A stretch of 64,000 bases of DNA from Anaerolineae bacterium (GCA_041687115.1 JAWLCP010000003.1:7315-71314), one strand, 5' to 3'. Positions 21,405-48,641 are shown, counted from the first letter of the stretch. Program-made: numbers and translations. Notes: generated by a model from the sequence alone, not told the origin.

Positions 21405-21414
21405 GTGGAGGCGG

Positions 21415-21738: not shown

Positions 21739-21753
21739 TGCGCGGAGCGTTGG

Positions 21754-24926: not shown

Positions 24927-24942
24927 CGCAAGAACCCGACGT

Positions 24943-25947: not shown

Positions 25948-26016
25948 GTGGCGCGGGCTGGCCGCGGATCTGGCTCGAGTTGAGAGCAGGCCGCCGCAAG
26001 CCAATATGGATCGTCT

Positions 26017-27438: not shown

Positions 27439-27458
27439 CGAGGTTGTCGCGAGGCTGA

Positions 27459-29706: not shown

Positions 29707-29717
29707 GACGGTGGGCG

Positions 29718-30242
29718 ATGGTACCACTGGATACAGTCTTATGGACGTTCGTCCTCCTCTTTGGGTTGATGGGAGCCCTGCGGGGATGGTCGAAGGAGAT
29801 GCTGGTGCTCTTCAGCGTGGTGGTGGCACTGGCCATGCGGCTTATCTTCACCGAGTACGTGCCTTTTGTCAGGGATTTCTTCGCCCGGCCCCCGGTGCAG
29901 CAGTTCTATCTGTACAGCGGGCTGGTGGTCTTGATGACCATCGCCGGGTACGCGGGGCCCGCGGTCTCTGGGCGATTGGCGCATGCGTCGGCGCGCGAGA
30001 CGCTTCAGGACATCCTGCTGGGGTTCATCATCGGTGCGATAAATGGGTTCCTGATCATTGGCTCGATCTGGTACTTCCTGGACGCGGCCGGGTACAACAT
30101 CATGGGGATAACACCGCCGCCTCCTGACTCGATGGCTGCGGCGCTGGCGAGCAGCTATCTGCCACCGCTCTGGCTCACGGACGCGGTGCTGTTGACCGCC
30201 TTTTCATTCGCGTCGGTTTTCGTGATCATCGTGCTGGTCTAA
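29718..30242 (+). CDS. CvpA-family (colicin V production-like) integral membrane protein, inserted inside the dcw cluster.
   Basis: 174 aa, four predicted TM helices, CvpA-like topology. Exact family assignment needs an HMM. Confidence 0.5.
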   Translation: MVPLDTVLWTFVLLFGLMGALRGWSKEMLVLFSVVVALAMRLIFTEYVPFVRDFFARPPVQQFYLYSGLVVLMTIAGYAGPAVSGRLAHASARETLQDILLGFIIGAINGFLIIGSIWYFLDAAGYNIMGITPPPPDSMAAALASSYLPPLWLTDAVLLTAFSFASVFVIIVLV

Positions 30243-30255
30243 GTGAGAGGTTGAC

Positions 30256-31656: not shown

Positions 31657-31806
31657 TGGAGAAGAGAGACCAAGTTGAAGGGAACCAGAGGGGCGAAGAG
31701 TTGAAGGGACGTTTGAAGGGCGTGCGCAAGCGGAAGCAGGTCCAGCAGTGCCTGGGGCAGGACGGGGTGGCGTTCAAGGTGCGGCTGGCAAGGGCACGAG
31801 GGCGCG

Positions 31807-32817
31807 TTGGCCGCTGAATCGAACCTGTCCGCTCTGGCGGAAGCCCTGGGTCCGTGCGCGCGCCGCGACGTGCCGTTGGCGCCCTTCACGTCGATCCGTG
31901 TGGGGGGGGCCGCCGACGTCTTCGTCGTCGCCGGGAGCCAGGACGAGCTGGTGCACGCGGTCAGGCTGGCGCGACACTATGACGTCCCCTGGCAGGTATT
32001 GGGCAGCGGCTGCAACGTCCTGATCGCGGATGAGGGAGTGCGCGGCCTGGTGATCGCCAATCGGGCAGAGTCGATCTTCATCGAAGGTGGGCTCGCGCGG
32101 GCGGAGTCGGGGGCGAAGCTGACCGTGCTGGCTCAGAGGGCGGTGGAGGCTGGCCTCGAGGGCCTTGCCTGGGCAGCGGGTCTGCCGGGTACGGTCGGCG
32201 GGGCCGTGGTGGGGAACGCGGGTGCTTTTGAGGGGGACGTCGCCGGCGTGCTCGGCAGTGCGACGATGCTGGAGCCCGACGACGAGGTAAGGGAGAGACC
32301 GAACACCTGGTTCGAGTTCCGGTATCGGGGGAGCCGCCTGAAGGGCCGGCCACACGTTGCAGCGGAGGACGGTTTCGGCAGAGGGGAGGCAGCAGATGGC
32401 GGATACGTGGTTCTGAAGGCGGCGTTCGATCTGAAGCCTGGGAACCGGGCGGCGTTGCGGGCGAGAGCCGAGGAGATTCTGACCTGGCGCAGGACGCGCC
32501 ATCCGTCGGGCGCGACCATGGGCTCGACGTTCAAGAATCCGCCGGGCGGGCACGCCGGCCGGCTCATCGAGCGAGCCGGGCTGAAGGGGCTGCGGATAGG
32601 TGGAGCACAGATATCGGAACAGCACGCGAACTTCTTCGTCAACGTGGACGATGCCACGGCCGTTGACGTGTGGGCCCTCATCGAGCGAGCGCGGGCGGAG
32701 GTGAGACGACAGTTTGGGGTGGTTCTAGAGCTGGAGATCGAGCCGCTGGGTTGGGACGGGAGCGTCATGAACGGGACCTCGACAAAGTGCCAGGGCAGGG
32801 CAGATGGGAACGGATGA
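31807..32817 (+). CDS. murB: UDP-N-acetylenolpyruvoylglucosamine reductase MurB (TTG start).
   Basis: FAD-binding PCMH domain (IRVGGAADVFV, LGSGCNVLIADEG). MurB C-domain. Confidence 0.88.
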   Translation: MAAESNLSALAEALGPCARRDVPLAPFTSIRVGGAADVFVVAGSQDELVHAVRLARHYDVPWQVLGSGCNVLIADEGVRGLVIANRAESIFIEGGLARAESGAKLTVLAQRAVEAGLEGLAWAAGLPGTVGGAVVGNAGAFEGDVAGVLGSATMLEPDDEVRERPNTWFEFRYRGSRLKGRPHVAAEDGFGRGEAADGGYVVLKAAFDLKPGNRAALRARAEEILTWRRTRHPSGATMGSTFKNPPGGHAGRLIERAGLKGLRIGGAQISEQHANFFVNVDDATAVDVWALIERARAEVRRQFGVVLELEIEPLGWDGSVMNGTSTKCQGRADGNG

Positions 32818-32818
32818 G

Positions 32819-33949
32819 ATGACCGACAGAATCCGGGTGGCAGTGATCTTCGGCGGGCGATCGGGGGAGCACGAGATCTCCCTTGTCTCCGCCCAGTCTG
32901 TGATGGAGGCCATGGACGACGCGAAGTACGACATTGTCCCCATCGGCATCACCAAAGAGGGCCGGTGGATCGCCTCAGGGGATCCGGTTCGGGCCCTGAC
33001 GGCCGGCGATCCCCAGGCCAGCGGGCCCGCGGCGCTGCTGGGCGACCCTTCACGACGCAGCCTGATGCGTCTGGAAGAGACTGAGCAGGCGCTGGAGGCG
33101 ACCCCGCTCTCCGAGATTGACGTGGTCTTCCCGGTCTTGCACGGTCCATATGGCGAGGATGGTGCTGTCCAGGGATTGCTCGAGTTGGCGGGGCTTCCCT
33201 ACGTCGGGGCCGGGGTCACCGCCTCTGCAGTGGCGATGGACAAGGCGATCTTCAAGGACGTGATGCGCGCACACGGGTTGCCGATCGTGGACTACGCTCT
33301 TGTGAAGCGGCGTACGTGGGAGACAGATCCGAACGCGGTCATCTCCCAACTCGAGCGCCGGTTCAGCTACCCGGTCTTCACGAAGCCTGCGAATCTGGGT
33401 TCGAGCGTGGGCATCAGCAGGTGTCGAGATCGCGCGGAGCTGGCCGACGGACTGACGGAGGCGGCCCGCTACGATCGAAAACTGCTGGCGGAGCCCGCGG
33501 TGCCGCAGGCGCGGGAGATCGAGGTCAGCGTCCTGGGCAACGATGATCCCATCGCCTCTCTTCCTGGCGAGATCGTCCCCAGCCGGGAGTTTTACAGCTA
33601 CGAGGCCAAGTATCTGGACACCGGGGATGAGGCATCCGCTCTTCACATCCCTGCACCGCTTTCTCCGGAACTGACGGATACCGTGCGTGAACTGGCTGTA
33701 CGGACGTATAAGGCGATCGACTGCGCGGGCATGGCCCGCGTGGACTTCCTGCTCTCCGGAGAGACGGGGGAGTTGATGGTGAACGAGGCGAATACGATCC
33801 CCGGTTTCACCGACATCAGCATGTATCCGAAGCTGTGGGAGGCCAGCGGTCTCCCATATCCAGAACTCATCGATCGGCTGATCGAGCTGGCGCTGGAGCG
33901 ACACCGGGACAGAGTGCGCATGGAGACTTCTTATCAACCTCAGGAGTGA
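32819..33949 (+). CDS. ddl: D-alanine--D-alanine ligase.
   Basis: RVAVIFGGRSGEHEISLVSA N-terminus. ATP-grasp fold. Alternative ATG at 32804. Confidence 0.9.
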   Translation: MTDRIRVAVIFGGRSGEHEISLVSAQSVMEAMDDAKYDIVPIGITKEGRWIASGDPVRALTAGDPQASGPAALLGDPSRRSLMRLEETEQALEATPLSEIDVVFPVLHGPYGEDGAVQGLLELAGLPYVGAGVTASAVAMDKAIFKDVMRAHGLPIVDYALVKRRTWETDPNAVISQLERRFSYPVFTKPANLGSSVGISRCRDRAELADGLTEAARYDRKLLAEPAVPQAREIEVSVLGNDDPIASLPGEIVPSREFYSYEAKYLDTGDEASALHIPAPLSPELTDTVRELAVRTYKAIDCAGMARVDFLLSGETGELMVNEANTIPGFTDISMYPKLWEASGLPYPELIDRLIELALERHRDRVRMETSYQPQE

Positions 33950-33953
33950 GCCT

Positions 33954-34778
33954 ATGACCAGGTCTTGGAACCGCCCACGGAAGAGACGATATGAACACAC
34001 AGGTGCAGTGGTCCTGAACCAGGTGCGGTTGGGCCAGGCTCCCATCTCGCTGCGGAGGTTGCGCTGGCGCCACATTGGATTGTGGGCCGTGGTGGTCTTG
34101 ATGGTGGCTGCAGGGGCAGTGGTGGCATGGCTGACCTGGGACAGCCGCTTCTACGTCTACGATGCCGAGGTCGTGGGCACTCGCCAGCTCTCAAGCGCAG
34201 ACCTCTTCGCGGCCAGCGGGCTGGATGGGCTGCATATCCTATGGGCGAGGCCGGCCTCGATAAGAGCACGGCTTTTGGGCGAATTCCCGTCCCTGGAGAG
34301 CGTGGACGTCAGCTGTGGCTTCCCTTCGGACTGCAGGATCTCGGTCGTAGAGCGTCAGCCACGGGTTCTTTGGAACGACCAGGGCCAGCAGTGGTGGGTC
34401 GACGAGGACGGTGCCATCTTCGAGGCAGAGGATGGGGCAGGAGCTCCGGATCGGGACATGGCTGGGCGATGGCTGGTCAGGGGGCCACTCCCACGGAGCG
34501 AGGACGGGAGTCTCGACCAGCGAGTGCGCGTGGCCTTGGCGGAGCTTTGGGCCAGCGGCGCGGACGTGCCGGCGGAGTTTGAGTACCGGACCGACCGGGG
34601 GCTAAGCTTCACGGATCGGCATGGATGGCGCGTTGTGGTGGGACAAGGATCCGGGATGGATCAGCGTCTGCGGACACTGGAGCCCCTGATGGACCATCTC
34701 GAATCGCGCGGGGCCACGCCTCTGTTTGTGGATGTGCGTTTCCCGAAGGCACCTTACTACTCGGAAGGGATCGACTAG
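33954..34778 (+). CDS. ftsQ: Cell division protein FtsQ/DivIB (POTRA domain).
   Basis: Bitopic: TM LWAVVVLMVAAGAVVAW, then POTRA-like FYVYDAEVVG. Position before ftsA. Confidence 0.8.
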   Translation: MTRSWNRPRKRRYEHTGAVVLNQVRLGQAPISLRRLRWRHIGLWAVVVLMVAAGAVVAWLTWDSRFYVYDAEVVGTRQLSSADLFAASGLDGLHILWARPASIRARLLGEFPSLESVDVSCGFPSDCRISVVERQPRVLWNDQGQQWWVDEDGAIFEAEDGAGAPDRDMAGRWLVRGPLPRSEDGSLDQRVRVALAELWASGADVPAEFEYRTDRGLSFTDRHGWRVVVGQGSGMDQRLRTLEPLMDHLESRGATPLFVDVRFPKAPYYSEGID

Positions 34779-34809
34779 GCGCAACGACTGCCAGGTAGGG
34801 AGTGAGGCC

Positions 34810-36033
34810 GTGGAACGAACCGTCGTCGGCATTGATGTAGGATCCAGCAAGATCTGTACGCTGGTAGGGGAGATCCGTGAGCAGGGCGACCTACGTGTCG
34901 TGGGCGTGGGGCTGGTTCCGGCACGGGGGCTGCGCAAGGGCGTGGTGGTCAACGTCGAGGACGCCACGGCAGCGCTGGCGGCCTCGATTGACGAAGCTGA
35001 GCGTTCCTCAGGCTACAAACTGGAGCGGGCTTACGTCAGCGTCAGCGGCGAGCACGTCTCCTCGCTCAACTGCCAGGGCGTGGTGGGCGTCTCACACCGG
35101 AGGGACGGGATTACGGTCGACGACGTGGAACGCGCGTTAGACGCCGCGTGTGCGATCACGGTTCCCCACAATCACGAGATCATCCACGTCATCCCGCGCG
35201 GGTATGTGGTGGACGGTCAGAGCGGCGTGCAAGACCCTGTTGGCATGCACGGCTTCCGTCTGGAGGCAGAGGTGCACGTGGTCACGGCGTCGTCGACCGC
35301 GATTCAGAACCTGCTGAAGTGCGTGAGCCGAGCGGGTATGGAGGTGGACGAGGTAGTCTCCGCAGCGATAGCGGCCGGGGATGCCGTCTTGACAGAGACA
35401 GAGCGGGAGATGGGAGTGGTGTTGGCGGACGTCGGGGCGGGCACGACGGATGTGGCCATCTTCATCAACGGGACGGTGTGGCACACCATCACGCTCGGCG
35501 TCGGTGGTGCCTACGTTACCCAGGATGTGGCCATCGGTCTGCGTCTCTCCCCCGCCGTCGCTGAAGAGATCAAGATAAAACACGGCCACACGATCGCGAG
35601 CGAGGTGGATTCCGAGGAGGAGTTCATGGTAGCCTCGTTTGGCGACGAAGCGCGTCAGCCGGTCCCGCGCTGGCAGTTAGCGAGCATCATTGAGGCCCGA
35701 GCTGAGGAGATTCTGTCGATGATCGGGAAAGAAATCAAGCGCTCGGGGTACGATGGGCTGCTGCCCGCCGGTATCGTGTTGACCGGGGGCACCGCACAGC
35801 TCCCCGGTATCCTGTCGCTTGCACGGGAGGTGCTGGATCTCCCCGCGCGGGTGGGGAAGCCACAGGGTCTCCATGGGCTCGTCGATACGGTCAACAACCC
35901 CGCTCACGCTGTAGGTGCGGGATTGATGATGTGGGGGAGTACAGAGGAGGCGCGACCGCAACTGCGCAGCAGGCCCGGGCCGGTCAACAAGGGGCGCTTC
36001 CTCGACTGGCTGCGGGCGTTCCTGCCGGGTTGA
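34810..36033 (+). CDS. ftsA: Cell division protein FtsA (GTG start).
   Basis: Actin-fold motifs VVGIDVGSSKICTLVGE, DVGAGTTDVAIF. Confidence 0.9.
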   Translation: MERTVVGIDVGSSKICTLVGEIREQGDLRVVGVGLVPARGLRKGVVVNVEDATAALAASIDEAERSSGYKLERAYVSVSGEHVSSLNCQGVVGVSHRRDGITVDDVERALDAACAITVPHNHEIIHVIPRGYVVDGQSGVQDPVGMHGFRLEAEVHVVTASSTAIQNLLKCVSRAGMEVDEVVSAAIAAGDAVLTETEREMGVVLADVGAGTTDVAIFINGTVWHTITLGVGGAYVTQDVAIGLRLSPAVAEEIKIKHGHTIASEVDSEEEFMVASFGDEARQPVPRWQLASIIEARAEEILSMIGKEIKRSGYDGLLPAGIVLTGGTAQLPGILSLAREVLDLPARVGKPQGLHGLVDTVNNPAHAVGAGLMMWGSTEEARPQLRSRPGPVNKGRFLDWLRAFLPG

Positions 36034-36232
36034 TGGACGCGAGGACCGTCGTGGCGAGGCGGTGTGTGCTCGATGTGCTCGAGCTGAAGGAATCAGGGTA
36101 AGCGGTGACCGTGCGCAGGGTGGGGTGCCGGCATCATCACTCTTATTGAAGGCGTAGGGGAGGACAATGAGGAGAGACATATCACAGGAAGGCGGAAACG
36201 TGGGCTCGCATCAGTTCAATGAAGGGGGATCT

Positions 36233-37309
36233 ATGAATAGAGCATCACAACCCGAGAGCTTCGCCAAGATCCGGGTCGTCGGTGTGGGAGGCGGCGGGAG
36301 CAATGCCGTCAATCGCATGATCGCTGAGGGGATGGGTGGCGTCGACTTCGTCGCTGTCAACACCGACGCTCAGGCGCTTATGCTGTCCGACGCCCCTGCC
36401 CGAGTGCGTATCGGCGACAAGCTGACGCGCGGCCTGGGTGTGGGAGGCAACCCGGATATGGGCCAGGAGGCGGCGGAGGAGTCGGTGGATGAGCTGTTCG
36501 ATATCCTCGAGGGCTCCGACATGGTGTTCATCACCGCCGGGATGGGCGGAGGGACGGGCACCGGGGCTTCGCCCGTCATCGCGCGGGTGGCGAAGGAGGT
36601 CGGTGCGCTGAGCATCGGCGTGGTCACCCGTCCCTTCAACTGGGAGGGGTCGGTGCGTGGTCAGGCGGCTCAGAAGGGCATCGCGAACCTCAAAGAGGAG
36701 GTCGATACGCTGATCGTGATTCCGAACGACCGTCTGCTGGAGATCACGGACAAGCGCGTGACGCTGCAGAATGCGTTCTCGCTGGCCGACGACGTGCTGC
36801 GGCAGGGCATCCAGGGAATCTCCGAGCTGATCACTGTGCCGGGTTTGATCAACCTCGACTTCGCCGATGTGCGAACCATCATGGCGGAGGGTGGGGCAGC
36901 GCTGATGGCCGTTGGGCGCGCCAGCGGCGAGGATCGGGCCGTTGAGGCTGCCGGGCAGGCGATCTCCAGCGAACTCCTGGACGTCACGATCGACGGTGCC
37001 CGGGGCATCCTGTTCAACGTCACCGGTGGACCAGATCTGAGCCTGTACGAGGTGAACGAGGCGGCGTCGATCATCAAGCGGACGGCGCACCCCGACGTCA
37101 ACCTGATCTTCGGGGCTGTGGTCGACCAGGAGATGGAGGACGAGATCCGCATCACGGTGATCGCCACTGGTTTCGACCAGACGAACTCACGGTCTCGGAT
37201 GACCAGCCGGTCAGATGGGAGGGAGAAGCCCGAGTCGGTCGAGTTCGATGCGCCTTCCTTTGATACGGACGACATCGAGATTCCGGCGTTCCTGCGACGC
37301 CGTAACTGA
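36233..37309 (+). CDS. ftsZ: Cell division GTPase FtsZ.
   Basis: [17 protein letters not shown], tubulin signature [20 protein letters not shown]. Confidence 0.95.
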
Positions 37310-37833: not shown

Positions 37834-37923
37834 GGTTTCTCCTTTCGGGTTGAAGGAATGGCGTATGACGGCGGCCGACAAGCGCGCATAGAGCGGGCGA
37901 ATCCGCACTTCGTTTGGCGACGG

Positions 37924-39264
37924 CTACGCCATCTTGTAGAGCTCGGTGTGGACACGCTCGCGGACCTCCGCGCGCATCTGGCCGCGTGAGACGGCCAGCT
38001 CCTCCAGGGTCCGCTCCACCGCCTCAAGCATCGGTATCGGGCCACACATGAAGAAGGTGCATTCCCTGAAGTCCTCGCAGAGAAGGCGCTCCAGCACATC
38101 TCTATCGATGAACCCGCTCTCGCCCCCCCAGCCCTCGGGCGGGTTCTCCAGCACGTGGATGACCTGCAGGTTCAGCCTCTCCTCCAGGGCCTCAAGCTCC
38201 TCCCGGAAGATAATCTCCTCCCAGGCCGGATTCCCGTAGAAAAACTGTATCCGTCGATCGTCGCCGCGGTCGGCTAGCGTGCGAAGCATGCTCATGACGG
38301 GCGCGGAGCCGATGCCTCCGGCAATGAGGATCAGGCCAGCTTCCGGCTCGCGGTACAGGTCGAAGGTGCCGTAGGGGCCGTCAACGTAGACCCTTGTCCC
38401 GACGGGGACATCCCCGATGGTGGAGGTGAAATCTCCCAGCTCTTTGATGGCGAAGCCAATCTGTTCCGGGCGCTCGGCGCTGGAGGCGAACGAAAACGGA
38501 TGCTCCTCGATGCGAAAGGGGGAATGTCCGACAGACAGCCACGCGACCTGGCCGGCCTTGAACGTGAGACCCTCGTGGCCTTCCGGTTCGAGAATGAGGG
38601 TCCAGGTCTTGCCCCGCTCCTCGATGACGTCGACCACCCGGTATGGGTGCTGCAGGAGCGTCCACGGCTTGATGACCCGGATGTAGACGATCATGGCCCC
38701 CCAGATGACCGCCAGCGCGATGACGAGGCCGCGCTGCACCGGAACGGAGGTGTAGTAGTTGACGTTCAGGATGTGGTAGAGGGCGAACCCTATGACGCCG
38801 ACCGAGAAGGCGTCGTGGAGCGTGCGCCAACTCTCGTAATTGAGGCCGAGGGCAAGGCGCCTGACCGACGTCAGAACCAGCACCAGCAGGATCACTACGG
38901 AGGCGACCCCGGCGCGGGCGCGCCACGGCGCGGTGAAGACGTTGAGGAGTTGAAGCGTGTAGGGGTTCTGGACGAATAGGATCAGGGGATGGGCCAGGGT
39001 CACAAGGAAGGCAGCGATGGACAGGCGGTGGTGGAAGGCGTAGAGGGTATCGGGCGGGAACACCTCGCTGAGAAACGGCAGGCGGGCGGTGGGGATGAAC
39101 TGAAGGCCCATGAGGGAGAGGCCGGCGAAACCCATGGCGGCGGATAGCTCTCGCCAGAAGGTACGGCCCTCCGGACGGGGCGCCAGCAGAAGGACCAACA
39201 GCGGGGCCAGCGCGATCACAAAGTAGATGGAGATCCAATAGAGCTGCTTCGTTCGTCGTTTCAT
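37924..39264 (-). CDS. NOX/FRE-family flavocytochrome: ferric-reductase transmembrane domain fused to an FAD/NAD(P)-binding ferredoxin-reductase-type domain.
   Basis: Six TM helices with His-containing FRD domain. HPFSFAS (FAD-binding), GGIGSAPV (NAD-binding), FFMCGP motif. Confidence 0.75.
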   Translation of the reverse strand: MKRRTKQLYWISIYFVIALAPLLVLLLAPRPEGRTFWRELSAAMGFAGLSLMGLQFIPTARLPFLSEVFPPDTLYAFHHRLSIAAFLVTLAHPLILFVQNPYTLQLLNVFTAPWRARAGVASVVILLVLVLTSVRRLALGLNYESWRTLHDAFSVGVIGFALYHILNVNYYTSVPVQRGLVIALAVIWGAMIVYIRVIKPWTLLQHPYRVVDVIEERGKTWTLILEPEGHEGLTFKAGQVAWLSVGHSPFRIEEHPFSFASSAERPEQIGFAIKELGDFTSTIGDVPVGTRVYVDGPYGTFDLYREPEAGLILIAGGIGSAPVMSMLRTLADRGDDRRIQFFYGNPAWEEIIFREELEALEERLNLQVIHVLENPPEGWGGESGFIDRDVLERLLCEDFRECTFFMCGPIPMLEAVERTLEELAVSRGQMRAEVRERVHTELYKMA

Positions 39265-39427
39265 TGGGATTATCCTATGGTCACTGTGACGCCCGTGCTG
39301 GCGCGGTCGTCGGCGGTATTTGAGTTTTCGTGGAGTTAGTATATACTGCTTGAGGTCCTTCGGCAAATCGGAGTGGGGCTGGGCGGTCGTTTCACACTGA
39401 AAGAGATAGGGAGGGAGAGGGGGAGAC

Positions 39428-40516
39428 ATGAAGTGGCCTAGAGGCGTCGTTGTCGGCCTGATCGTGGTCGTCATTGGCGGTGTGGGGGCCTGGGCGTACG
39501 GCTTCTTCGTCGCCCCGGAGTCGGTGGAGGAGATTAGCGCGAAGTGGACGCTCTCCGGTCATGCGGATGGTGAATCGTACTCCTTCACCCGTTGGGATGA
39601 TGAGGAACCCCCCGAGATCCCGAGAGTCTGCGCCAAGTGCCACAGTATGGAGGGGTACCTCGACTTCGTGGGGGCCGACGGCTCGGCTGCGGGCGAGGTG
39701 GATCGCGCTGTCCTGGGGGGATCCGTGGTCAGCTGCCGCACGTGTCACAATGAGCCGGCGCACCAGATGGCGGAGGTCACCTTCCCCTCGGACATCACGG
39801 TGGAGGAACGCACCAAGGCGGCGAACTGCATGCAGTGTCACCAGGGGCGGCAGTCGACGCCGGACATAGACGAGGCGCTGGCCGGGCTGGAGCCGGACGT
39901 GGTCTCCGATGACCTGGGGTTTGTCAACGTCCACTACGCCGTCGCCGCTGCGACGCTGCTGGGTGGCGACGCGCAGGTTGGGTACCAGTACCCCGGGAAG
40001 TCCTACGTGGGCCGGTTTGAGCACGTCGAGGAGTACGACACGTGTATCGAGTGCCACGATGCCCACAGTACGTTCCGCAATCCCGACCAGTGCAGCCCCT
40101 GTCACCTCAACGTCGTGGACCGCACCGATCTGCGCGAGATACGCGTGAGCGGTGTGGACTACGACGGGGACGGCGACGTGGACGAGCCGATCCGCGGCGA
40201 AGTGGCCTCATTCCACGACGCCCTCTACGCGGCGATTCAGGATTACGCGGCAGAGGTCATCGGGGAGCCGATCGTCTACGAGGACTCCTTCCCTTACTTC
40301 TTCAACGATCCTGACGGGGGCGAGGTGACGTTCGCCGATCGGTACGCGTCCTGGACGCCCCGGCTGGTGCGGGCGACGTACAACTACCACTACGTGCACG
40401 AGGATGCGGGCGCGTACACGCACAACGCCAGGTACGTGCTGCAGCTGCTGTACGACAGTATGGAGGATCTGGGGCAGGCAGTGCCCGTGCAGATGGAGGG
40501 TTTCGTGCGCCCATGA
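39428..40516 (+). CDS. Membrane-anchored pentaheme c-type cytochrome.
   Basis: Five CxxCH motifs: CAKCH, CRTCH, CMQCH, CIECH, CSPCH. N-terminal TM anchor. Confidence 0.8.
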   Translation: MKWPRGVVVGLIVVVIGGVGAWAYGFFVAPESVEEISAKWTLSGHADGESYSFTRWDDEEPPEIPRVCAKCHSMEGYLDFVGADGSAAGEVDRAVLGGSVVSCRTCHNEPAHQMAEVTFPSDITVEERTKAANCMQCHQGRQSTPDIDEALAGLEPDVVSDDLGFVNVHYAVAAATLLGGDAQVGYQYPGKSYVGRFEHVEEYDTCIECHDAHSTFRNPDQCSPCHLNVVDRTDLREIRVSGVDYDGDGDVDEPIRGEVASFHDALYAAIQDYAAEVIGEPIVYEDSFPYFFNDPDGGEVTFADRYASWTPRLVRATYNYHYVHEDAGAYTHNARYVLQLLYDSMEDLGQAVPVQMEGFVRP

Positions 40517-40667
40517 CCAGGGCCTGACTGCACAGCGCCGGCCCGGCGAAGGACCCGATGCGACATCGGGGAGGGCGTGATTATCTGGCAGGCGCGATCA
40601 GTTCTGGGCTCAGATACCGCTGCTGGTCCTTCGCCGGGCTCTTGGTGACGGATTCCCGGGCGCGCGC

Positions 40668-41438
40668 TCAGTGAGCATCCTCGGACTCGATCATCTGGGC
40701 GAAGGCTCCATGCCAAGTGTGGTACCAGACCTGCCCCGTGGTCCCGTGGACGCTGAGCATACCCTCGATCTCGCCGTCCTCCAGCGTGTGAACGGTGTAG
40801 TAGCCATAGAAGGGAACGGCGTGCTCCTCCACCGTGACCCCGGGGCGGTTGGCGTCCAGCCAGCGTTGGGCGATCGCCAGCGCCTCCGCGTCTGAGATCG
40901 CGTTACGCCCGCTGGAGCCACCCATCATGGTGCCTCGCCCGCGCATGCCGTAGCGGGCGTTCCACATCATGTTGGGGCCCATCTCCGGGCCGACCGCGCC
41001 GGTCCCCTTATCCAGGAGCAACTCCATGGCGCCGATGCCCGTGTCGGGTTCCCGGGCGATGGCATAGAAGTTGAGCTCGAATTCCATCACTTCGACCACC
41101 TCGAGCTGGTCGTAGCCCACCGAGGCTAGATAGCGCTTCACGTCCTCGTGGGCCTCGTCGATGGTCAGCAGACCCGGGGGCTCCAATTGCCGACCTGCGT
41201 CGTCTACGCACGCCGGGCCCCGGGGGGTGCCCCAGGGTGTGGCCCGACCGGGCATCATGGCAGGTCCTCTGCCGGACTCCCACTCACAGTCCTGCGTGGC
41301 GGACCCTGTGCCGAGCGCGTAGGAGGGCGCGGCGGCCCAAAGCTGGCGGCCCCACAGCGCCCAACCCGCGGTCAGGCCGGCTACGACGAGCGCCACCACC
41401 ACAAAAATTCCCAGACCGATCCAGAGCGTTGTTCTCAT
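40668..41438 (-). CDS. Hypothetical membrane-anchored periplasmic protein (PepSY-like repeats).
   Basis: N-terminal TM. Two PepSY-like segments, including AEALAIAQRWL...GYYTVH. Confidence 0.5.
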   Translation of the reverse strand: MRTTLWIGLGIFVVVALVVAGLTAGWALWGRQLWAAAPSYALGTGSATQDCEWESGRGPAMMPGRATPWGTPRGPACVDDAGRQLEPPGLLTIDEAHEDVKRYLASVGYDQLEVVEVMEFELNFYAIAREPDTGIGAMELLLDKGTGAVGPEMGPNMMWNARYGMRGRGTMMGGSSGRNAISDAEALAIAQRWLDANRPGVTVEEHAVPFYGYYTVHTLEDGEIEGMLSVHGTTGQVWYHTWHGAFAQMIESEDAH

Positions 41439-41650
41439 GTCCCCTCCTCATACTCCCTCCCTGACTCGACGGCGTTTCGCTGAAGCTCGGCCAACACCTG
41501 ATATCTGGCTCCGTGCTCTGCGATTGGCGCGGTCACGTCTGGCGCCGTCGAGGCTCAGGTAAAACTCTCCCAATACTGTGCTTTGAGTGTACCACGCACG
41601 GTGGGCGTCGGGGAGCGCTGTTTGGCGGGGGGGCGTGAGGGAGAAACGGC

Positions 41651-43108
41651 CTATGTTGCGGGCGAGGGCGTAGCCTCTCCAGGCTGGGCCGGGAGACGGA
41701 CGGTGATGCGCGTCCCCTCGCTCGGCGCAGTGCGGACGTGGAATGAGCCTCTAAGCAGCGTGGCCCGCTCCCGCATCCCCATGAGCCCAAAGTGCCCGGC
41801 CTGGGTGAGGACGTCGGGACGCGGCGGGAGGTCGAACCCCACACCGTCGTCGACCACGGACAGGACGATCCCCCCGGCAGTGGAGCGCACATGCACGGTG
41901 ATGGTCTCCGCATGGGCGTGCTCGACGGCGTTGTTGAGCGCCTCCTGGGCGATGCGGTAGGCGGCGAGCTCGACGGCAGGGGCGAGGCGCTGGTAGTCGG
42001 CTTCCTTCTCCAGATGCAGCCGGGCCTGGGTTCGGTCGGCGGCCTGGCGCACCAGCATCTCCACCGCGGGGACGAAGCCCAGATCCTCCAGGTAGGGCGG
42101 GCGGAGTGCGCCTATGATGCGGCGGAGCTCCTCCACCGTCTCCCGCTCGGCGCGGCGAAGGTCGGCCATTAAGGAGCGCGCCTGTTCCGTCTGGTCCCGC
42201 TCGATCAGATGTTGAGCGCTCTCGGCCCGATGCCCGAGAGCGATGAGATCCTGGACGGGTCCGTCGTGGAGCTCGCGGGCCAGGCGGGCCCGCTCCGCCT
42301 CCTGGCCCTCGGTGAGGGCGGTCAGATAGTCGCGCACGCCGGCCTGGTAGCCGCGAATGCGCTCCGCCATGTCCGCCAGGGCGCGGTGGAGGTCCTGGAT
42401 TTCCTGAACGCCCATGGCGAGGCGACCCTCAGCCCCGCCGGTAGCCATAGACGAGAGATCGCCCCACGATACCTGCTCCGCCGCGTCGGCGAGAGCCCGC
42501 AGAGGACGTATGATCGTGCGCCAGCCAAATGTGAGGATTAGGATGGATACGACGGCGGCGCCAACGGCCGCGGCAGGGGCGAGGCTAGAGAGTCGGAGGA
42601 TGGGCCCGACGATCTCATCGACTGGCTCCTGGATGAGTACTTGCCAGTCGGTCCCCATGACCGGGGCGAAGGCGACGAGGACCGGCCCACGGAGTTCGGT
42701 GTTGACGATGACGAATCCGTCGCGCTGCTGGAGGGCCTGGATGATCCCCTCCCCGGCGGTCAGGTCGGGTTCTTCCTGACCCGCGGAACGGGTGAGGATC
42801 TCCCGTGTGTCGCTGACGACGATGAGGGAGGCTGTTCGGGGCTGGTCCTCGAAGACGGGCGGGATGTGGGCAGAAAGCCCCTCTCCGTCGGGGCTGATCA
42901 CGCCGTGGGCAAGTCCGTCCTCGATGCTGCGGGCGACTAGGCGGGCCAGGGAGAGGTCGCGGTCGGCGACGAAGTCCCGCATGGCGCGCTGGTGTGCGTA
43001 GACACCGGTGAAGGCGAGGGCGATGATGAGCAGGGTGATGGGCAACACTGCCCACAAGAACAGTTGGAACTGGAGGCTGCGGAGGAGGCGAACAACAGAG
43101 CGTCTCAT
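41651..43108 (-). CDS. Two-component sensor histidine kinase (NarX/LiaS-type, HisKA_3 + HATPase).
   Basis: N-terminal TM/sensor. HisKA_3 box ERARLARELHDGPVQDL. HATPase_c motifs. Confidence 0.85.
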   Translation of the reverse strand: MRRSVVRLLRSLQFQLFLWAVLPITLLIIALAFTGVYAHQRAMRDFVADRDLSLARLVARSIEDGLAHGVISPDGEGLSAHIPPVFEDQPRTASLIVVSDTREILTRSAGQEEPDLTAGEGIIQALQQRDGFVIVNTELRGPVLVAFAPVMGTDWQVLIQEPVDEIVGPILRLSSLAPAAAVGAAVVSILILTFGWRTIIRPLRALADAAEQVSWGDLSSMATGGAEGRLAMGVQEIQDLHRALADMAERIRGYQAGVRDYLTALTEGQEAERARLARELHDGPVQDLIALGHRAESAQHLIERDQTEQARSLMADLRRAERETVEELRRIIGALRPPYLEDLGFVPAVEMLVRQAADRTQARLHLEKEADYQRLAPAVELAAYRIAQEALNNAVEHAHAETITVHVRSTAGGIVLSVVDDGVGFDLPPRPDVLTQAGHFGLMGMRERATLLRGSFHVRTAPSEGTRITVRLPAQPGEATPSPAT

Positions 43109-43130
43109 GGTAGATGACCCGCGTGTTGCC

Positions 43131-43787
43131 CTACTCAACGACGATCCAGCCGCGTTTGAGCGCCTCGGTGACAGCCTCTGTGCGGCTGCTGGCGCCGAGT
43201 TTCCCGTAGATGCTGGCCAGGTGGCCTTGGACCGTGCGGTGGCTAATGCCGAGTTCCCGGCCTACCTCGCGGTTGGTCATACCCCTGGCGACGAGACGCA
43301 GGACGTCGATCTCCCGGGGAGTGAGGGGTTCGATCTGGTCGGCAGCGCCCTCGGGGCGATGGTCCGTCGCCTGACGCACAACCTTCGTGGCGACCTCCGG
43401 GCTGAGGGCAGACTCGCCGCGGTGAACCGTGCGGACGGCGTCGACCAGCTGGTCGGCGCTGGCGGTCTTGAGGACATAGCCGTCGGCACCGGCCTCCAGG
43501 AGGGCGAAGACGTAGGGGTCATCGTCGTAGGCGGTCAGGATGAGGACGCGGGTGTCCGGGAAGCCGGCCTTGATCCGACGCGTGGCCTCAACACCGGTGA
43601 CCTCGGGCATGCGGATGTCGAGGACGGCCACGTCGGGGTGGTGGTCCTCGACGAGGCGGATAGCCTCTTTGCCGTTGGAGGCCTCGGCGACGACGTCGAT
43701 GGCGGGATCGTCCTCCAGGAAGCGGCGGATGCCCTGACGGACGACGGCGTGGTCATCGGCTAGGACGACGCGAATCTGTTTGGCCAT
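43131..43787 (-). CDS. NarL/LuxR-family response regulator.
   Basis: REC domain with IRVVLADDH and VAVLDIRMP. C-terminal LuxR HTH LTPREIDVLRLVARGMTNREVG. GGAGG RBS. Confidence 0.88.
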   Translation of the reverse strand: MAKQIRVVLADDHAVVRQGIRRFLEDDPAIDVVAEASNGKEAIRLVEDHHPDVAVLDIRMPEVTGVEATRRIKAGFPDTRVLILTAYDDDPYVFALLEAGADGYVLKTASADQLVDAVRTVHRGESALSPEVATKVVRQATDHRPEGAADQIEPLTPREIDVLRLVARGMTNREVGRELGISHRTVQGHLASIYGKLGASSRTEAVTEALKRGWIVVE

Positions 43788-43812
43788 GGAAGGACCTCCG
43801 ATCGGGGCTCGC

Positions 43813-44304
43813 TCATACAATACGGTCGGCGACCTCGGCCAGGAGCCCGGCGATGGGCGGCACGAGGAAGGTAACGGAGTACCGGATGAGGGCGGGGCGG
43901 GGATCGATGAGGGCCATCTCGACCGGGAGACGGGAAACAGACCAGAGGGCCCACGCGGTGACGAAGCCGACCACGGCGCCGATACTGGCGCCAGCCTGGT
44001 AGAGAGAGGCGACGATGGGAAAGGTGGCGTATGGGGCGCCAGGGACCAACCCGCCGACGACGCAGCCGATGAGGATTCCCTTGACCCCGGCGCGGTTGCC
44101 CAACCAACGGGAGATGAGCTCCCTGGGGACGAGCACCTGGACGAGGCCGGCCAGGACGAAGCCGACGATGAGAAGGAGCAGGTTGCGGCGCACGGTGTTC
44201 CAGGCAGCCAACAGGCCGTCCATGGCCACATTCTTCCCCTGCCGGAGCGCGATGAAGAACAGGGCGGCGGCGACGATGGTCAGGACGACGGTCGTGGTGT
44301 CCAC
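43813..44304 (-). CDS. Small polytopic membrane protein, putative (half-)permease, first gene of the RR-HK operon.
   Basis: Multiple TM segments. GTG start with strong GGAGGAGG RBS; the ORF track gives a longer version to 44334. Confidence 0.5.
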   Translation of the reverse strand: MDTTTVVLTIVAAALFFIALRQGKNVAMDGLLAAWNTVRRNLLLLIVGFVLAGLVQVLVPRELISRWLGNRAGVKGILIGCVVGGLVPGAPYATFPIVASLYQAGASIGAVVGFVTAWALWSVSRLPVEMALIDPRPALIRYSVTFLVPPIAGLLAEVADRIV

Positions 44305-44457
44305 TGAATTGCCTCCTCCGCGTTTGGGTGTCATGTCGGTTCTCTCAGTATCGCGTTTTGTCTAGCTGCAGCGGGGTTGGGCGACGTCAGACGGTCAATG
44401 TATCCATTGTAGCCTCACTCGGGCTTCTGCGCCAGTGGTCCGAGCGAGGGGATAACG

Positions 44458-45069: not shown

Positions 45070-46704
45070 TCACTCGCCTATTGCATTGGGCACGGGACCC
45101 TCGGTGTCGTCGAAGCTGGCGAAGTGTTCAGTCTCTGCATCCTCTCGGTAGTGAGCTCCCCGAGATTGCCGGTTGTGCCACGCGGCGTTGGTGACGATCC
45201 AGGCAACCTGGGCCATGTTTCGCAGACCGATAAGGCCATCGTCCAGGCGTGTTGCGCGATAGAAGTTGTCGATCACGCCCCACAGATGATCCAGCTCGTT
45301 CAACGCGCGGGCCAGGCGGTGCGTGTTCCGTGCCAGACCGACGTAGAGCCACATGATGTTCTGGATGGCATGGGTGTCCCGCGTGACGAGCACTGGGTCG
45401 GCAGCAGCGTTGTCGTTGGGCGGCTCCCAGGGCGGGATCGTGTTGGCATCGACAGGGCGGAGGTCGGTGCGTGACGCGATGTCCTGACCAGCCCGTTGCC
45501 CCCAGAGCAGCCCTTCCAGCAAAGACGTGCTGGCTAGCCGGTTGGCACCGTGGACCCCGGTGCAGCTCACCTCTCCCACGGCGTAGAGCCCGTGCAGGGT
45601 AGTGCGGCCCACGGCATCTACGTGGACTCCACCGCAGAAGTAGTGGGCGGCGGGGACGACAGGGATAGGCTCTGCAGTGATGTCGACGCCAGCGTCCATA
45701 CAGGCCTGGTAGATGGTGGGGAAACGGTCCTGGATCTCCTGCGCTGTCATGGCAGAGGCTAGGTCGAGACACACGTGGGGGTAGCGGTGATCCAGCATCT
45801 CGTGGTGGATGGCGCGCGCCACCACGTCGCGGGGGGCCAGGTCACCCCATTCCGGCGCGTAGTCGTCCATGAAATGGCGGCCGTCGGGCGTGTATAGCCG
45901 TCCTCCCTCGCCGCGCAGCGCCTCCGAGATGAGGAAGTTGTCCGCCCCCGGCACGGCCAACGTCGTGGGATGGAACTGGACGAACTCGGCGTTGATGACA
46001 CGGGCGCCCGCCCGGTAAGCCATGGCCAGACCGTCGCCGCGGGCTCCCTTAGGGTTGCTGGTGTGCTGATAGATCTGGCCGACGCCGCCGGTGGCTAGCA
46101 CTGTGGCCGGCGCGAGGAAGCGGTGGATCTCCCCGGAATCCCGATCGAGGACGTATGCGCCGTGGCACGTGATCGGCGCGTAGACGGCGTGGAGATCCTG
46201 GCTGTGGTGCGAAGAGGTGATGAGATCCACGGCCGTCAGGCCCGCGAGGAGGGCGACATTGGGCAGCGCCTGCAGCTGATCGATGAGCGCGGATTCGATG
46301 GCGCGGCCTGTTGCGTCGCCCACGTGGAGGATGCGAGAGACGCGGTGTCCACCCTCTCGGGTGTAGGAAAGGCTGCCGTCGGCCTCCCGATCGAAGGGGA
46401 CGGCCAGATCCTCCAGCAACACTCGCTCGACCAGCGGCGGCCCTTCCTCTGCGAGGAGCCGAGCCGCCCTCGGCAGGCTGAGGCCAGCGCCAGCTCTGAG
46501 TATGTCCTGTTCGAGCAGCTGAGTGCTGTCGCCGGGTCCGCGGGCCACGATGCCGCCCTGGGCGTAGCGGGTGTTTGACTCCTCCGGATTCCGCGCCCGT
46601 GTGATGACCGTGACGTGACGTTCCTGATCCTGAGCGAGCTGCAGGGCGGTGGCTGCCCCGGAGATTCCGGAGCCGATGACGAGGACGTCAGTCTCGGCGG
46701 TCAT
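45070..46704 (-). CDS. nadB: L-aspartate oxidase NadB.
   Basis: VLVIGSGISGAATA FAD motif. RYAQGGIVA. Succinate-DH/fumarate-reductase flavoprotein fold. Confidence 0.9.
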   Translation of the reverse strand: MTAETDVLVIGSGISGAATALQLAQDQERHVTVITRARNPEESNTRYAQGGIVARGPGDSTQLLEQDILRAGAGLSLPRAARLLAEEGPPLVERVLLEDLAVPFDREADGSLSYTREGGHRVSRILHVGDATGRAIESALIDQLQALPNVALLAGLTAVDLITSSHHSQDLHAVYAPITCHGAYVLDRDSGEIHRFLAPATVLATGGVGQIYQHTSNPKGARGDGLAMAYRAGARVINAEFVQFHPTTLAVPGADNFLISEALRGEGGRLYTPDGRHFMDDYAPEWGDLAPRDVVARAIHHEMLDHRYPHVCLDLASAMTAQEIQDRFPTIYQACMDAGVDITAEPIPVVPAAHYFCGGVHVDAVGRTTLHGLYAVGEVSCTGVHGANRLASTSLLEGLLWGQRAGQDIASRTDLRPVDANTIPPWEPPNDNAAADPVLVTRDTHAIQNIMWLYVGLARNTHRLARALNELDHLWGVIDNFYRATRLDDGLIGLRNMAQVAWIVTNAAWHNRQSRGAHYREDAETEHFASFDDTEGPVPNAIGE

Positions 46705-46730: not shown

Positions 46731-48641
46731 TCACAACGCCAGCATCCGTTTCAGAGCCACTCTGGCCCATCTCGCCGTCTCCTCGTCGACGGTGACTTCG
46801 TTGTGCAGCTTGCCGTGCGTCAGACCGTCCAGGACCGCGGCCAGATTCTCCAGGGTGATCCGGGTCATGGTGGCGCAGTAGGGCGGAACGTCGGCCAGCG
46901 GGACGACGGTCTGGTCGGGATGCTCGCTCTGCAGGCGCTGGACCAGGCGGGTCTCGGTCCCGACGGCCCAGATCGTGCCGGGCGGTCCCGCGGCGACCTG
47001 GCGGATGATGTGGGCCGTGGACCCCGCGTCGTCGGCCAGGGACACAACGTCGGCGGTGCATTCGGGATGCACGATGACGCGGGCCTGGGGGTGATGCGCC
47101 CGAAAGGTCCGAACATGCGAGGGTCGGAAGCGCTGGTGCACGTTGCAGGCGCCGGGCCAGAGGACGACCCGGGTCTCACGAAGGACCTCGTCGGTGAGGG
47201 GCCGCCCCTGATCCCAGACGGTCATCTCGGCCGGGGGAATGTCCAGCTGCGCTGCGGTGTTCCGGCCCAGGTGCTGATCGGGGAAGAAGAAGACGCGCGG
47301 TCGACGCTCGAGTGCCCAGCGGAGCACGTCTGGGGCGTTGCCGGAGGTGCACATGATGCCGCCGTACTTTCCGCAGAAAGCTTTGAGGGCAGCCGATGAG
47401 TTGACGTACGTGATGGGCGTGAACTCGCTCTCCGCATCGTCGGAGGCTGTGTCGAGCGCCTTCCAGGCGGCCTGCACGGCGCCAAGCGTCGCCGTGTCCG
47501 CCAGGTAGCAGCCGGCGCTGGGGTCGGGGATGAGCACGTGCTGCCCAGGCTGCGCCAGGATGGCGGCGACCTCTGCCATGAAGTGGACCCCGCAGAAGAC
47601 GATGTACTCGGCGTCGATGTCCGTGGCCTGCCGTGCAAGCTGCAGGGAGTCGCCACGATAATCCGCGAATTCGATGACCTCGTCTCGCTGGTAGTGATGG
47701 CCTAGAATGACGAGCCGTTGATTCAATGCTGCCTTGGCGTCCCGGATGCGCTCAACTGGGTCCGGAACGCCTGTTTCCTCCGATGGGGCTCTGACGTCCA
47801 TGCTCACGTCCAACGCACGCACCGAGTGCGTCAGTGCACCCACAGAGATGTAGTCGACACCAGCGGCCGCTATGTCCGCGACGGTATCCAGGCTGACGTT
47901 CCCGGAGGCCTCCAGAGGCACACGCCCGCCGGCCACCTCAACCGCCTTCCGCATCGTCGCCAGGCTCATGTTGTCCAGCATGATGCGATCCAAAGGCGGC
48001 GTGATGCTCAGGGCCTCGCGGAGCTCGTCTAGCGTGCGAACCTCCACTTCAATGGGGAGGTCGGGCTGAGCAGTGCGGGCCCGGGCCACGGCGGTGGTGA
48101 TGCCGCCGGCCCCCACGATGTGGTTGTCCTTGATCAGGATCATATCGAAGAGGGCCATGCGATGATTGGCGCCGCCGCCCATGCGCACCGCGTACTTGTC
48201 CAGCAGGCGATGACCGGGCACGGTCTTCCGCGTGTCCAGGATGGTGGCCTGGGTCGTGGCGACAGCATCAACGTAGGTCCGCGTGGTGGTGGCGATGCCC
48301 GACATACGCTGCAGGAAGTTGAGCGCCAGACGTTCCGCGGCGAGCAAGGAGGGCGCAGGTCCCTGGACCTCCGCGATGATCTCGCCGGCGACTACCTCCT
48401 GACCATCGTGCACGCGGGAGGCGAAACGAATCTTGGGGTTCACGTGATGGAATACGTGCTCTGCCACGCCGAGGCCGGCGATGACCCCCGCCTCCTTGGC
48501 CACGATGCAGCCGGTCAGCGACGTCTCAGGATCCAGCGTTGCCTCACTGGTCACGTCGCCGGGACCGATGTCCTCGGCAACTGCCAGCTCGATCAACGGC
48601 TCGGCAGCCCTCAGCAGCTCGTCGTTAGAAGTCCTGCCCAT
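46731..48641 (-). CDS. nadC-nadA: Apparent fusion protein: N-terminal quinolinate phosphoribosyltransferase (NadC, ~285 aa) joined in frame to quinolinate synthase (NadA, ~340 aa).
   Basis: NadC motifs: LDTRKT, IKDNH, ISVGALTHS. No stop between them. NadA motifs: VILGHHYQ, FCGVHFMAE, PDPSAGC, PGACNVHQ, HPEC. Confidence 0.75.
   Translation of the reverse strand: MGRTSNDELLRAAEPLIELAVAEDIGPGDVTSEATLDPETSLTGCIVAKEAGVIAGLGVAEHVFHHVNPKIRFASRVHDGQEVVAGEIIAEVQGPAPSLLAAERLALNFLQRMSGIATTTRTYVDAVATTQATILDTRKTVPGHRLLDKYAVRMGGGANHRMALFDMILIKDNHIVGAGGITTAVARARTAQPDLPIEVEVRTLDELREALSITPPLDRIMLDNMSLATMRKAVEVAGGRVPLEASGNVSLDTVADIAAAGVDYISVGALTHSVRALDVSMDVRAPSEETGVPDPVERIRDAKAALNQRLVILGHHYQRDEVIEFADYRGDSLQLARQATDIDAEYIVFCGVHFMAEVAAILAQPGQHVLIPDPSAGCYLADTATLGAVQAAWKALDTASDDAESEFTPITYVNSSAALKAFCGKYGGIMCTSGNAPDVLRWALERRPRVFFFPDQHLGRNTAAQLDIPPAEMTVWDQGRPLTDEVLRETRVVLWPGACNVHQRFRPSHVRTFRAHHPQARVIVHPECTADVVSLADDAGSTAHIIRQVAAGPPGTIWAVGTETRLVQRLQSEHPDQTVVPLADVPPYCATMTRITLENLAAVLDGLTHGKLHNEVTVDEETARWARVALKRMLAL

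Follow-up and report, generated by a model that had tools for sequence, protein, structure and literature searches.

A NOX-type flavocytochrome b and a pentaheme cytochrome c are genomic partners in Anaerolineae and may form a quinone-independent outward electron relay

The 64,000-nucleotide stretch of an Anaerolineae bacterium genome analysed here (GCA_041687115.1 JAWLCP010000003.1:7315-71314; hereafter the window) carries a gene for a membrane flavocytochrome b of the NOX/FRE type and, divergently oriented beside it, a gene for a pentaheme c-type cytochrome. An earlier note on this DNA had placed six open reading frames (ORFs) in the region, namely this pair and four neighbours, and an ORF listing returned all six at the same coordinates; its domain assignments also agree with Pfam and NCBIfam, that of the neighbouring PepSY-like protein at the level of fold only. 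To these we add two features that were absent from it and that are both conserved, a putative micro-ORF and a predicted bidirectional promoter. The pair and these two features are as follows.

37924-39264, minus strand: NOX/FRE-type flavocytochrome b, 446 amino acids, with Ferric_reduct, FAD_binding_8 and NAD_binding_1 domains

39428-40516, plus strand: pentaheme c-type cytochrome, 362 amino acids, with five CxxCH motifs and an N-terminal helix

37732-37833, minus strand: putative micro-ORF of 33 amino acids, recognized by a hidden Markov model (HMM) of homologous peptides and encoding one transmembrane (TM) helix

39320-39366, both strands: predicted compact bidirectional promoter, from a promoter scan and motif conservation

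The flavocytochrome matches Ferric_reduct (PF01794, E 4e-15), FAD_binding_8 (E 1.5e-8) and NAD_binding_1 (E 5e-21), and consists of a six-TM ferric reductase domain (FRD) followed by a dehydrogenase domain in which the motifs for FAD (HPFSF) and NAD(P)H (GGIGSAP, CGP) are present. Its ORF is open up to 39474; the start was set at the methionine of MKRRTKQ (39264), where all homologues begin, and with this start the spacer to the cytochrome gene measures 163 bp, matching the divergent spacing of ~160 bp first reported for it. A database protein from an Anaerolineae metagenome-assembled genome (MAG) is 100% identical across the 446 residues. The His pairs H78-x13-H92 and H150-x13-H164 are invariant in 38 homologues, TM-only forms included; they lie in TM3 and TM5 with the H-x12-14-H spacing of the FRD superfamily, and the fused C-terminal FAD/NAD(P)H domain is that of its long form. 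The best solved relatives are cytochrome b5 reductase, for the dehydrogenase domain only, and the full-length NOX of Streptococcus pneumoniae (SpNOX; 8qq7/8qt6), to which residues 37-421 align with an E value of 2.4e-17 in a Protein Data Bank (PDB) sequence search. Because of this homology with SpNOX, the N-terminus and the dehydrogenase domain would be cytoplasmic, and H78/H150 and H92/H164 would bind the inner and the outer heme, respectively. Membership of NOX sensu Hajjar et al. 2017 was rejected, as HPFSF and GIGSAP each miss the NOX-specific filter at one position (PMC5676040). Judged by its motifs, the protein has the architecture of a NOX but is not certified as one, and we class it as a bacterial 'long-form' FRD flavocytochrome.

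A motif scan of the cytochrome found exactly five CxxCH motifs (C68, C103, C134, C206 and C222) and a single N-terminal hydrophobic helix (residues 6-24), which bears out the five hemes and fits the N-terminal membrane anchor attributed to it before. Five further His residues (H45, H169, H199, H213 and H332) are invariant in 62 close homologues, and all five motifs and five extra His residues are kept in at least 98% of 277 domain copies from 150 divergent cluster representatives. An acidic DYDGDGD...E loop that resembles a Ca site is as conserved as the His residues, and a C-terminal three-helix region is also present. The pattern suits a set of five bis-His hemes for electron transfer better than a catalytic site, and the short basic N-terminus followed by a single helix would place the heme domain outside. 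Pfam gave generic c7/c3-type matches only, with a sub-threshold match to the MtrC/MtrF domain II/IV model, and a PDB sequence search with the cytochrome found no relative. Known families with comparable features were considered and rejected. For the NapC/NirT/NrfH/CymA/TorC group, the anchor and five hemes are present, but no PF03264 match was found at E<=0.01. Against NrfA stand the motifs themselves (all five CxxCH, none CxxCK), the absence of a Cytochrom_C552 Pfam match and the five further conserved His residues, and NrfA appeared among the Foldseek matches of the cytochrome model only non-significantly (TM-score about 0.3, E>1). For MtrC/OmcA/MtrF, the PF22113 match reached 21.3 bits against a cut-off of 30, and the cytochrome is a single unit whose model has no beta-barrel domain.

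The two genes occur together far beyond chance. When one genome per GTDB species was scanned from the cytochrome side, 55 loci were returned, and the flavocytochrome gene was the immediate neighbour of the cytochrome gene in about 47 of them. The hosts were chiefly Anaerolineae, Anaerolineales and Thermoflexales MAGs, and the divergent pair was also present in two cultured Billgrantia species (Halomonadaceae, Gammaproteobacteria; 45%/32% identity). Scanning from the flavocytochrome side gave 80 metagenome loci, 31 of which have an adjoining cytochrome gene (11 divergent, 12 convergent and 8 co-directional) and include nearly all loci with a flavocytochrome identity of about 51% or more. The cytochrome was likewise present in three of three flavocytochrome spot checks, a KSB1 genome included, each time in another orientation. 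Clustering of all neighbouring ORFs left just two recurrent families, the cytochrome in 50 loci and the flavocytochrome in 48, the next family reaching at most 10 loci; the genes flanking the pair are unrelated between loci, and no third full-size gene recurs. Phylogenetic co-occurrence, proposed beforehand as a test of the pairing, thus supports it across 45-90% identity, in more than one phylum and among unrelated flanks. The divergent arrangement stated in the same claim holds in the window and in most GTDB loci but is not general, since the genes can also be convergent or co-directional; among the GTDB loci, five are co-directional with gaps of 25-50 bp (L041, L043, L046, L057 and L058) and one is convergent (L049). 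The partner of the cytochrome in two Anaerolineae/Thermoflexales loci is a TM-only FRD protein of 228 (L044:3150-3836, plus strand) or 203 amino acids (L047:3266-3877, minus strand), which keeps all four heme His residues and has no FAD/NAD domain. Therefore, the cytochrome appears to be tied to the heme-b membrane domain and not to the dehydrogenase. Separately, ccmF and ccmE were seen just downstream of the cytochrome gene in 5-7 loci, for example at L018:11620-13527 (plus strand) and L022:12107-12583 (plus strand).

Relatives of the pentaheme unit were collected by a full scan of 1.84 billion cluster representatives, which gave 461 matches at E<1e-30 and 1161 at E<1e-10. Most of the best matches contain two units in tandem and are thus decahemes, and a lipobox-like motif is carried by about one in four of the 149 best cytochrome-family representatives. 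The proteins P0387 and P0243 combine the unit, as fusions, with an unrelated di-heme membrane cytochrome b (Ni_hydr_CYTB), and a longer cytochrome homologue (L005) is clustered with genes for a Ni_hydr_CYTB-type cytochrome b, an NrfD-like protein and a ferredoxin-like protein. Therefore, taking electrons from membrane b hemes appears to be a recurring role of the pentaheme unit. N-terminal extensions of ~440 amino acids that had been considered as fusion candidates proved to be Ser/Thr kinase, caspase, methyl-accepting chemotaxis protein and carbohydrate-binding modules. The unit forms the extracytoplasmic C-terminal domain of six Ser/Thr kinases (P0315, P0328, P0333, P0357, P0246 and P0389) and is likewise C-terminal in a methyl-accepting chemotaxis protein (P0310) and a caspase-domain protein (P0332); on such signalling proteins, it would be a putative extracytoplasmic multiheme redox-sensor input. 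In two Alphaproteobacteria MAGs, cytochrome homologues with a cleavable-looking signal peptide and no adjacent flavocytochrome (L053:1278-2903 and L055:5911-7533, both plus strand) are followed by a gene for a 540-residue amine-oxidase/CrtI-like FAD oxidoreductase.

The flavocytochrome gene has a second, much smaller companion. The micro-ORF starts 90 bases downstream of it, and its 33 codons encode VDRIYAERLLIATLALVLVLVVLFAALQGGPPF, with a GTG start located 5 nt after the AAAGGAGA Shine-Dalgarno sequence and an Arg-containing N-terminus. The consensus of the peptides is MQRIYARRLL, a helix of ~20 residues and then LQGGLPF. At E<1e-4, an HMM built from 26 micro-peptides detected the peptide in 33 loci, in each of them immediately 3' of the flavocytochrome gene and at no other place, and it matches 30 of the 80 metagenome loci; public gene callers annotated the micro-ORF as a gene of 30-34 amino acids in L062, L063, L064 and L065. 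Because it is also present in a few loci without the cytochrome, the micro-ORF tracks the flavocytochrome. As the simplest reading of these sequences, we propose that its product is a small membrane subunit of the flavocytochrome, so that a micro-ORF often overlooked in annotation may be a subunit. The flavocytochromes of Billgrantia antri and B. lactosivorans (L056:8334-9806 and L059:8326-9858, both minus strand) have an extra Arg-rich C-terminal TM helix; the micro-peptide HMM does not detect this tail, which may be a fused equivalent of the micro-ORF. Between the flavocytochrome stop codon and the micro-ORF lies a short GC-rich hairpin, GCGGGCGAATCCGC (37893-37906), which is unlikely to be a terminator because there is no T-run on the coding (minus) strand.

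In the spacer of the pair, the promoter scan predicted TTGAGT-16-TATACT on the plus strand, toward the cytochrome gene, and TTGCCG-17-TATACT on the minus strand, toward the flavocytochrome gene, with the palindrome AGTATATACT (39338-39347) as the -10 box common to both and with predicted start sites near 39331 and 39354. The arrangement ATTTGAGTTTT..AGTATATACT..GGCAAAT is kept in the spacers of related loci that otherwise do not align, and the 8-nt core GT[AT]TATAC, which occurs once in the window, is found in 18 loci within the spacer between the NOX and cytochrome genes. Rfam gave no match anywhere in the window, and the spacer thus holds no known riboswitch or small RNA. We take this putative promoter block as in-silico support for co-expression and for nothing beyond that.

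In our judgement, these features taken together make a direct outward electron relay formed by the pair probable, and we likewise favour the reading that the flavocytochrome b, the 33-residue peptide and the pentaheme cytochrome constitute one quinone-independent transmembrane electron exporter. NAD(P)H would be oxidized at the cytoplasmic FNR-like domain, and the electrons would pass to FAD, to the inner b heme (H78/H150) and to the outer b heme (H92/H164). From there, instead of or in preference to O2, they would reach the five bis-His c hemes, which the N-terminal anchor of the cytochrome would keep on the outer face, the two genes being co-expressed from the common bidirectional promoter. 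SpNOX reduces cytochrome c directly under anoxia, its outer heme is highly exposed, like that of MsrQ, and its authors considered that the physiological acceptor is perhaps not oxygen and could be a protein (PMC11564096). Because the flavocytochrome adjoins the cytochrome in dozens of Anaerolineae genomes and in a few other bacteria, we propose the cytochrome as its natural acceptor; gene order and conserved residues suggest that this role falls to the cytochrome and not to oxygen. The idea of a relay from NAD(P)H to the periplasm, put forward when the locus was first described, accordingly gains support from co-occurrence, with direct transfer and the acceptor staying at the level of prediction. 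A bolder form of the proposal, in which a clade of the NOX family has a dedicated protein acceptor and the locus encodes a previously undescribed quinone-independent NAD(P)H:cytochrome c wire including the 33-residue micro-protein, is advanced tentatively and falls a little short of what we would call probable.

The direction of flow bears on the possible function. Outward flow would be favoured by redox potential and membrane potential and would dissipate rather than conserve energy, as is known for NOX enzymes; because of this dissipation, redox balancing or the supply of reductant to an extracytoplasmic process fits better than a respiratory coupling site. Were electrons to flow inward, with the outer cytochrome collecting external electrons and the FRD/FNR protein reducing NAD(P)+ or another cytoplasmic acceptor, the flow would oppose the membrane potential (inside negative) and run uphill to NAD(P)+/NAD(P)H unless the donor had a very low potential. 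Electron uptake is possible via multiheme cytochromes and FNR-type domains are reversible in principle, but neighbour clustering found no energy-coupling subunit conserved beside the pair, and all characterized FRD-family proteins are known to move electrons outward (PMC3591440). We consider inward flow extremely improbable.

For an outward relay, the cytochrome would deliver electrons to an extracytoplasmic acceptor; Fe(III) or other metals, humics, another cytochrome or a redox enzyme are candidates, and the sequence names none of them. Fixing this terminal acceptor gives a sub-case of the exporter, an assimilatory cell-surface ferric (metal) reductase in which the cytochrome would reduce Fe(III) chelates for uptake instead of serving a respiratory or redox-balancing outlet, as a bacterial counterpart of yeast FRE and plant FRO. 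Fe(III) chelates are commonly reduced by bis-His multiheme cytochromes, the TM domain belongs to the ferric-reductase family of Pfam, and each locus has a single cytochrome copy, the window containing neither a porin nor a second multiheme cytochrome. Genes for VIT1-type iron transporters lie a few genes off in L003 and L062, but in these two loci only; in the neighbour clustering, no iron-uptake, siderophore or Fur-type genes recur beside the pair, and SpNOX has very low activity as a ferric reductase (PMC11564096). This assimilatory role therefore seems unlikely to us, although it deserves some weight.

Several observations weigh against the proposed exporter. Its support comes throughout from neighbouring genes and residue conservation. 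A cleaved signal peptide, instead of an anchor, could account for the N-terminal helix of the cytochrome, and Foldseek found no significant PDB match for the AlphaFold model of this protein (pLDDT 84), so that the heme geometry is a prediction. No NOX-cytochrome fusion was present among the 149 best cytochrome-family representatives, and cytochrome homologues occur without the flavocytochrome in three Alphaproteobacteria loci and in L040. The pairwise identities of flavocytochrome and cytochrome co-vary (r=0.80, Mantel p<=0.001), but this is expected from vertical co-inheritance alone and we give it little weight. Finally, 22 of the 80 metagenome loci, nearly all at 45-51% identity and forming a sister clade, have no cytochrome within 1.5-4 kb on either side; in the remaining 27, the flanks are too short to judge its presence. 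Therefore, this type of flavocytochrome can work without the cytochrome, and the pairing, strong as it is, is specific to one clade.

The cytochrome-less sister clade is also what would be expected if the flavocytochrome were a true O2-reducing NADPH oxidase and the cytochrome a linked protein other than the direct acceptor, for example a co-regulated superoxide or oxidant scavenger or a redox buffer. In its favour, c-type cytochromes are chemically reducible by superoxide, and O2 is reduced in vitro by SpNOX and other family members (PMC5676040, PMC11564096). However, the TM-only partners in L044 and L047 cannot oxidize NAD(P)H themselves and are still paired with the cytochrome, and the co-directional operons with their short gaps suit subunits better than a scavenger. 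Both NOX motif filters of Hajjar et al. failed, at one position each, and, as judged only by isolate and contig names, sediments, anaerobic reactors and sulfidic springs are the source of many host MAGs. An oxidase of this kind is in our view distinctly unlikely.

Members of the sister clade were also seen to adjoin, often, genes for CBS-domain proteins, PsiE-family membrane proteins and P-type cation ATPases (Cation_ATPase_N/C), in loci that include L096, L114, L115, L126, L130, L132, L143 and L144. The same type of P-type cation ATPase adjoins the pair in L001 and L061.

Compared with known systems, the flavocytochrome is closest in plan to SpNOX (8qq7, 8qt6), with which it shares the six-TM FRD, two bis-His b hemes, a cytoplasmic FAD/NAD(P)H domain and the lack of regulatory subunits. 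The identity is low, however, HPFSF and GIGSAP depart from the NOX filters, and the NAD domain matches PF00175 and not PF08030, the NOX/FRE type. Moreover, a pentaheme cytochrome and a 33-residue peptide are encoded alongside it, whereas we found no reported partner of SpNOX; Streptococcus is not known to make c-type cytochromes. MsrPQ (YedYZ in E. coli) offers a second likeness, as an FRD-family di-heme b protein whose exposed outer heme feeds a dedicated extracytoplasmic partner encoded by the adjacent gene, and the TM-only partners in L044 and L047 resemble MsrQ in format. In contrast to MsrPQ, the partner here is a multiheme cytochrome c and not the molybdoenzyme MsrP, and the FAD/NAD(P)H donor module is fused, whereas the donor of MsrQ is quinol or Fre, a separate flavin reductase. 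Membership of MsrPQ was rejected, given that no molybdoenzyme gene is among the recurrent neighbours and that the protein has its own FAD/NAD domain. Eukaryotic FRE/FRO and NOX enzymes have the same core of FRD, FAD and NAD(P)H domains and the same outward path, but there the outer heme itself, with the help of long extracellular loops, reduces Fe(III) chelates or O2; these enzymes are not known to have a c-type cytochrome partner.

On the cytochrome side, CbcL, ImcH and the CymA/NapC/NrfH/TorC proteins are alike in that a membrane redox module feeds a multiheme c domain on the outer face, and CbcL, a cytochrome b fused to a multiheme c, is resembled by the Ni_hydr_CYTB fusions of the pentaheme unit (P0387 and P0243). 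These gates draw on the quinol pool, whereas the pair described here would draw on NAD(P)H via FAD and the FRD fold. The MtrC/OmcA decahemes are built from pentaheme units, like most relatives of this cytochrome; the latter differs from them in having only one such unit, together with an N-terminal anchor and a C-terminal region that is helical, and in staying below the Pfam cut-off. Some homologues bear the NCBI name 'polyheme membrane-associated cytochrome C', which is also the label of OmcB of Geobacter (G. sulfurreducens; PMC2680965).

In open-access full-text literature, we found no description of a flavocytochrome-pentaheme cytochrome pair, although earlier mention elsewhere is possible, and the main text of the 2013 survey of the FRD superfamily never mentions cytochrome c, while listing other electron-transfer domains fused to FRD proteins. 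The remark of the earlier note that the pair is not a canonical described module agrees with this absence. The parts are of known kinds; what appears to be new is the conserved three-gene combination and its implication, namely that a bacterial NOX-family enzyme would have a protein as its natural acceptor and that electrons of NAD(P)H would reach c hemes on the outer face by a quinone-independent route. Should this be correct, the bacterial NOX family would for the first time have a natural partner assigned to it, and extracellular electron transfer would gain an inner-membrane gate of a new type. Bacterial NOX homologues serve as models for the structure of human NOX, and the linked pentaheme cytochrome provides a concrete acceptor candidate. 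Anaerolineae, which are probably for the most part fermentative, and some Proteobacteria could then dump reducing equivalents onto extracellular acceptors. Through a real relay, extracytoplasmic multiheme chains would gain an entry point that is fed by NAD(P)H and independent of quinones. In the Anaerolineae, which abound in sediments and digesters, this would bear on redox balancing, metal reduction and possibly electron transfer between species. Because the pair is present in cultured Billgrantia strains, the proposal is testable.

Beyond the cytochrome gene, four further genes on the minus strand had been grouped with the pair.

40668-41438, minus strand: PepSY-like membrane-anchored protein, matched at fold level

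41651-43138, minus strand: sensor kinase with HAMP, HisKA_3 and HATPase_c domains (Pfam/NCBIfam)

43131-43781, minus strand: NarL/LuxR-type response regulator with Response_reg and GerE domains (Pfam/NCBIfam)

43813-44334, minus strand: ArsP_1-type half permease, 173 amino acids, with weak likeness to the SaoE/SO_0444 Cu/Zn efflux models

All four are assigned here to a separate module. The HisKA_3 and HATPase_c kinase together with the Response_reg and GerE regulator make up a two-component system of the NarL type, and the end of the regulator gene overlaps the start of the kinase gene by 8 nt. For the protein of 40668-41438, the name 'PepSY-like' stands at the level of fold and not at that of sequence. 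No Pfam family was matched above its cut-off, the best being YPEB_PepSY1-2 (E 0.038; 14.5 bits against a cut-off of 31.7), whereas its AlphaFold model (pLDDT 76) contains two units of a helix and a four-stranded sheet, as in tandem PepSY folds, joined by a Met/Gly-rich linker, GPEMGPNMMWNARYGMRGRGTMMGG. The best PDB fold matches are the C-terminal PepSY domain of YpeB (5boi; probability 1.0, borderline E value of 1.7e-3) and YpmB (2gu3/9a5z). The family is very large, with 6556 matches, and none of the 120 homologues listed has a precomputed Pfam domain.

That the PepSY-like protein and the permease/regulator/kinase operon belong to the relay or regulate it had been suggested on the basis of adjacency, which recurs with all genes in the closest relatives L007, L009 and L064/L065 and with the PepSY-like gene only on the short contig L006; in L012/L013, the permease gene is the next one after the cytochrome gene, without the rest of the module. 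The wider distribution largely refutes a six-gene system of this kind, which we regard as very unlikely. Most of the 55 GTDB loci and every one of the 80 metagenome loci lack the four genes; relative to the pair, the PepSY-like family is very large; and a regulator-kinase-PepSY-like trio occurs without the pair at L066:2765-5783, beside genes for an HMA and pyridine-nucleotide-disulfide reductase (MerA-like) protein and a P-type ATPase. A part for these genes in the relay is thus unsupported, and regulation of the pair by the two-component system, for which no evidence was found, was rejected on the same distribution. Because the module is limited to the closest relatives and its trio also occurs without the pair, we treat it as a separate unit, possibly one for metal stress. 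The MerA-like and P-type ATPase neighbours of the trio in L066 hint at metal (Cu/Hg?) sensing.

On its other side, the pair is reached by a long run of same-strand ORFs (20478-37309, plus strand) that ends in ftsQ-, ftsA- and ftsZ-like ORFs and resembles a dcw-type cluster for cell division and cell wall; ftsZ (36167-37309) is the sole member of the run confirmed by Pfam. The run extends up to the micro-ORF, and the synteny of ftsA, ftsZ and the pair is also present in L064. At the permease end of the region, a fused NadC-NadA gene (46731-48641, minus strand; QRPTase_N/C and NadA, 636 amino acids) overlaps the upstream extension of a NadB-like ORF (45070-46695, minus strand), and these NAD biosynthesis genes lie ~700 bp from the permease, which is probably a coincidence.

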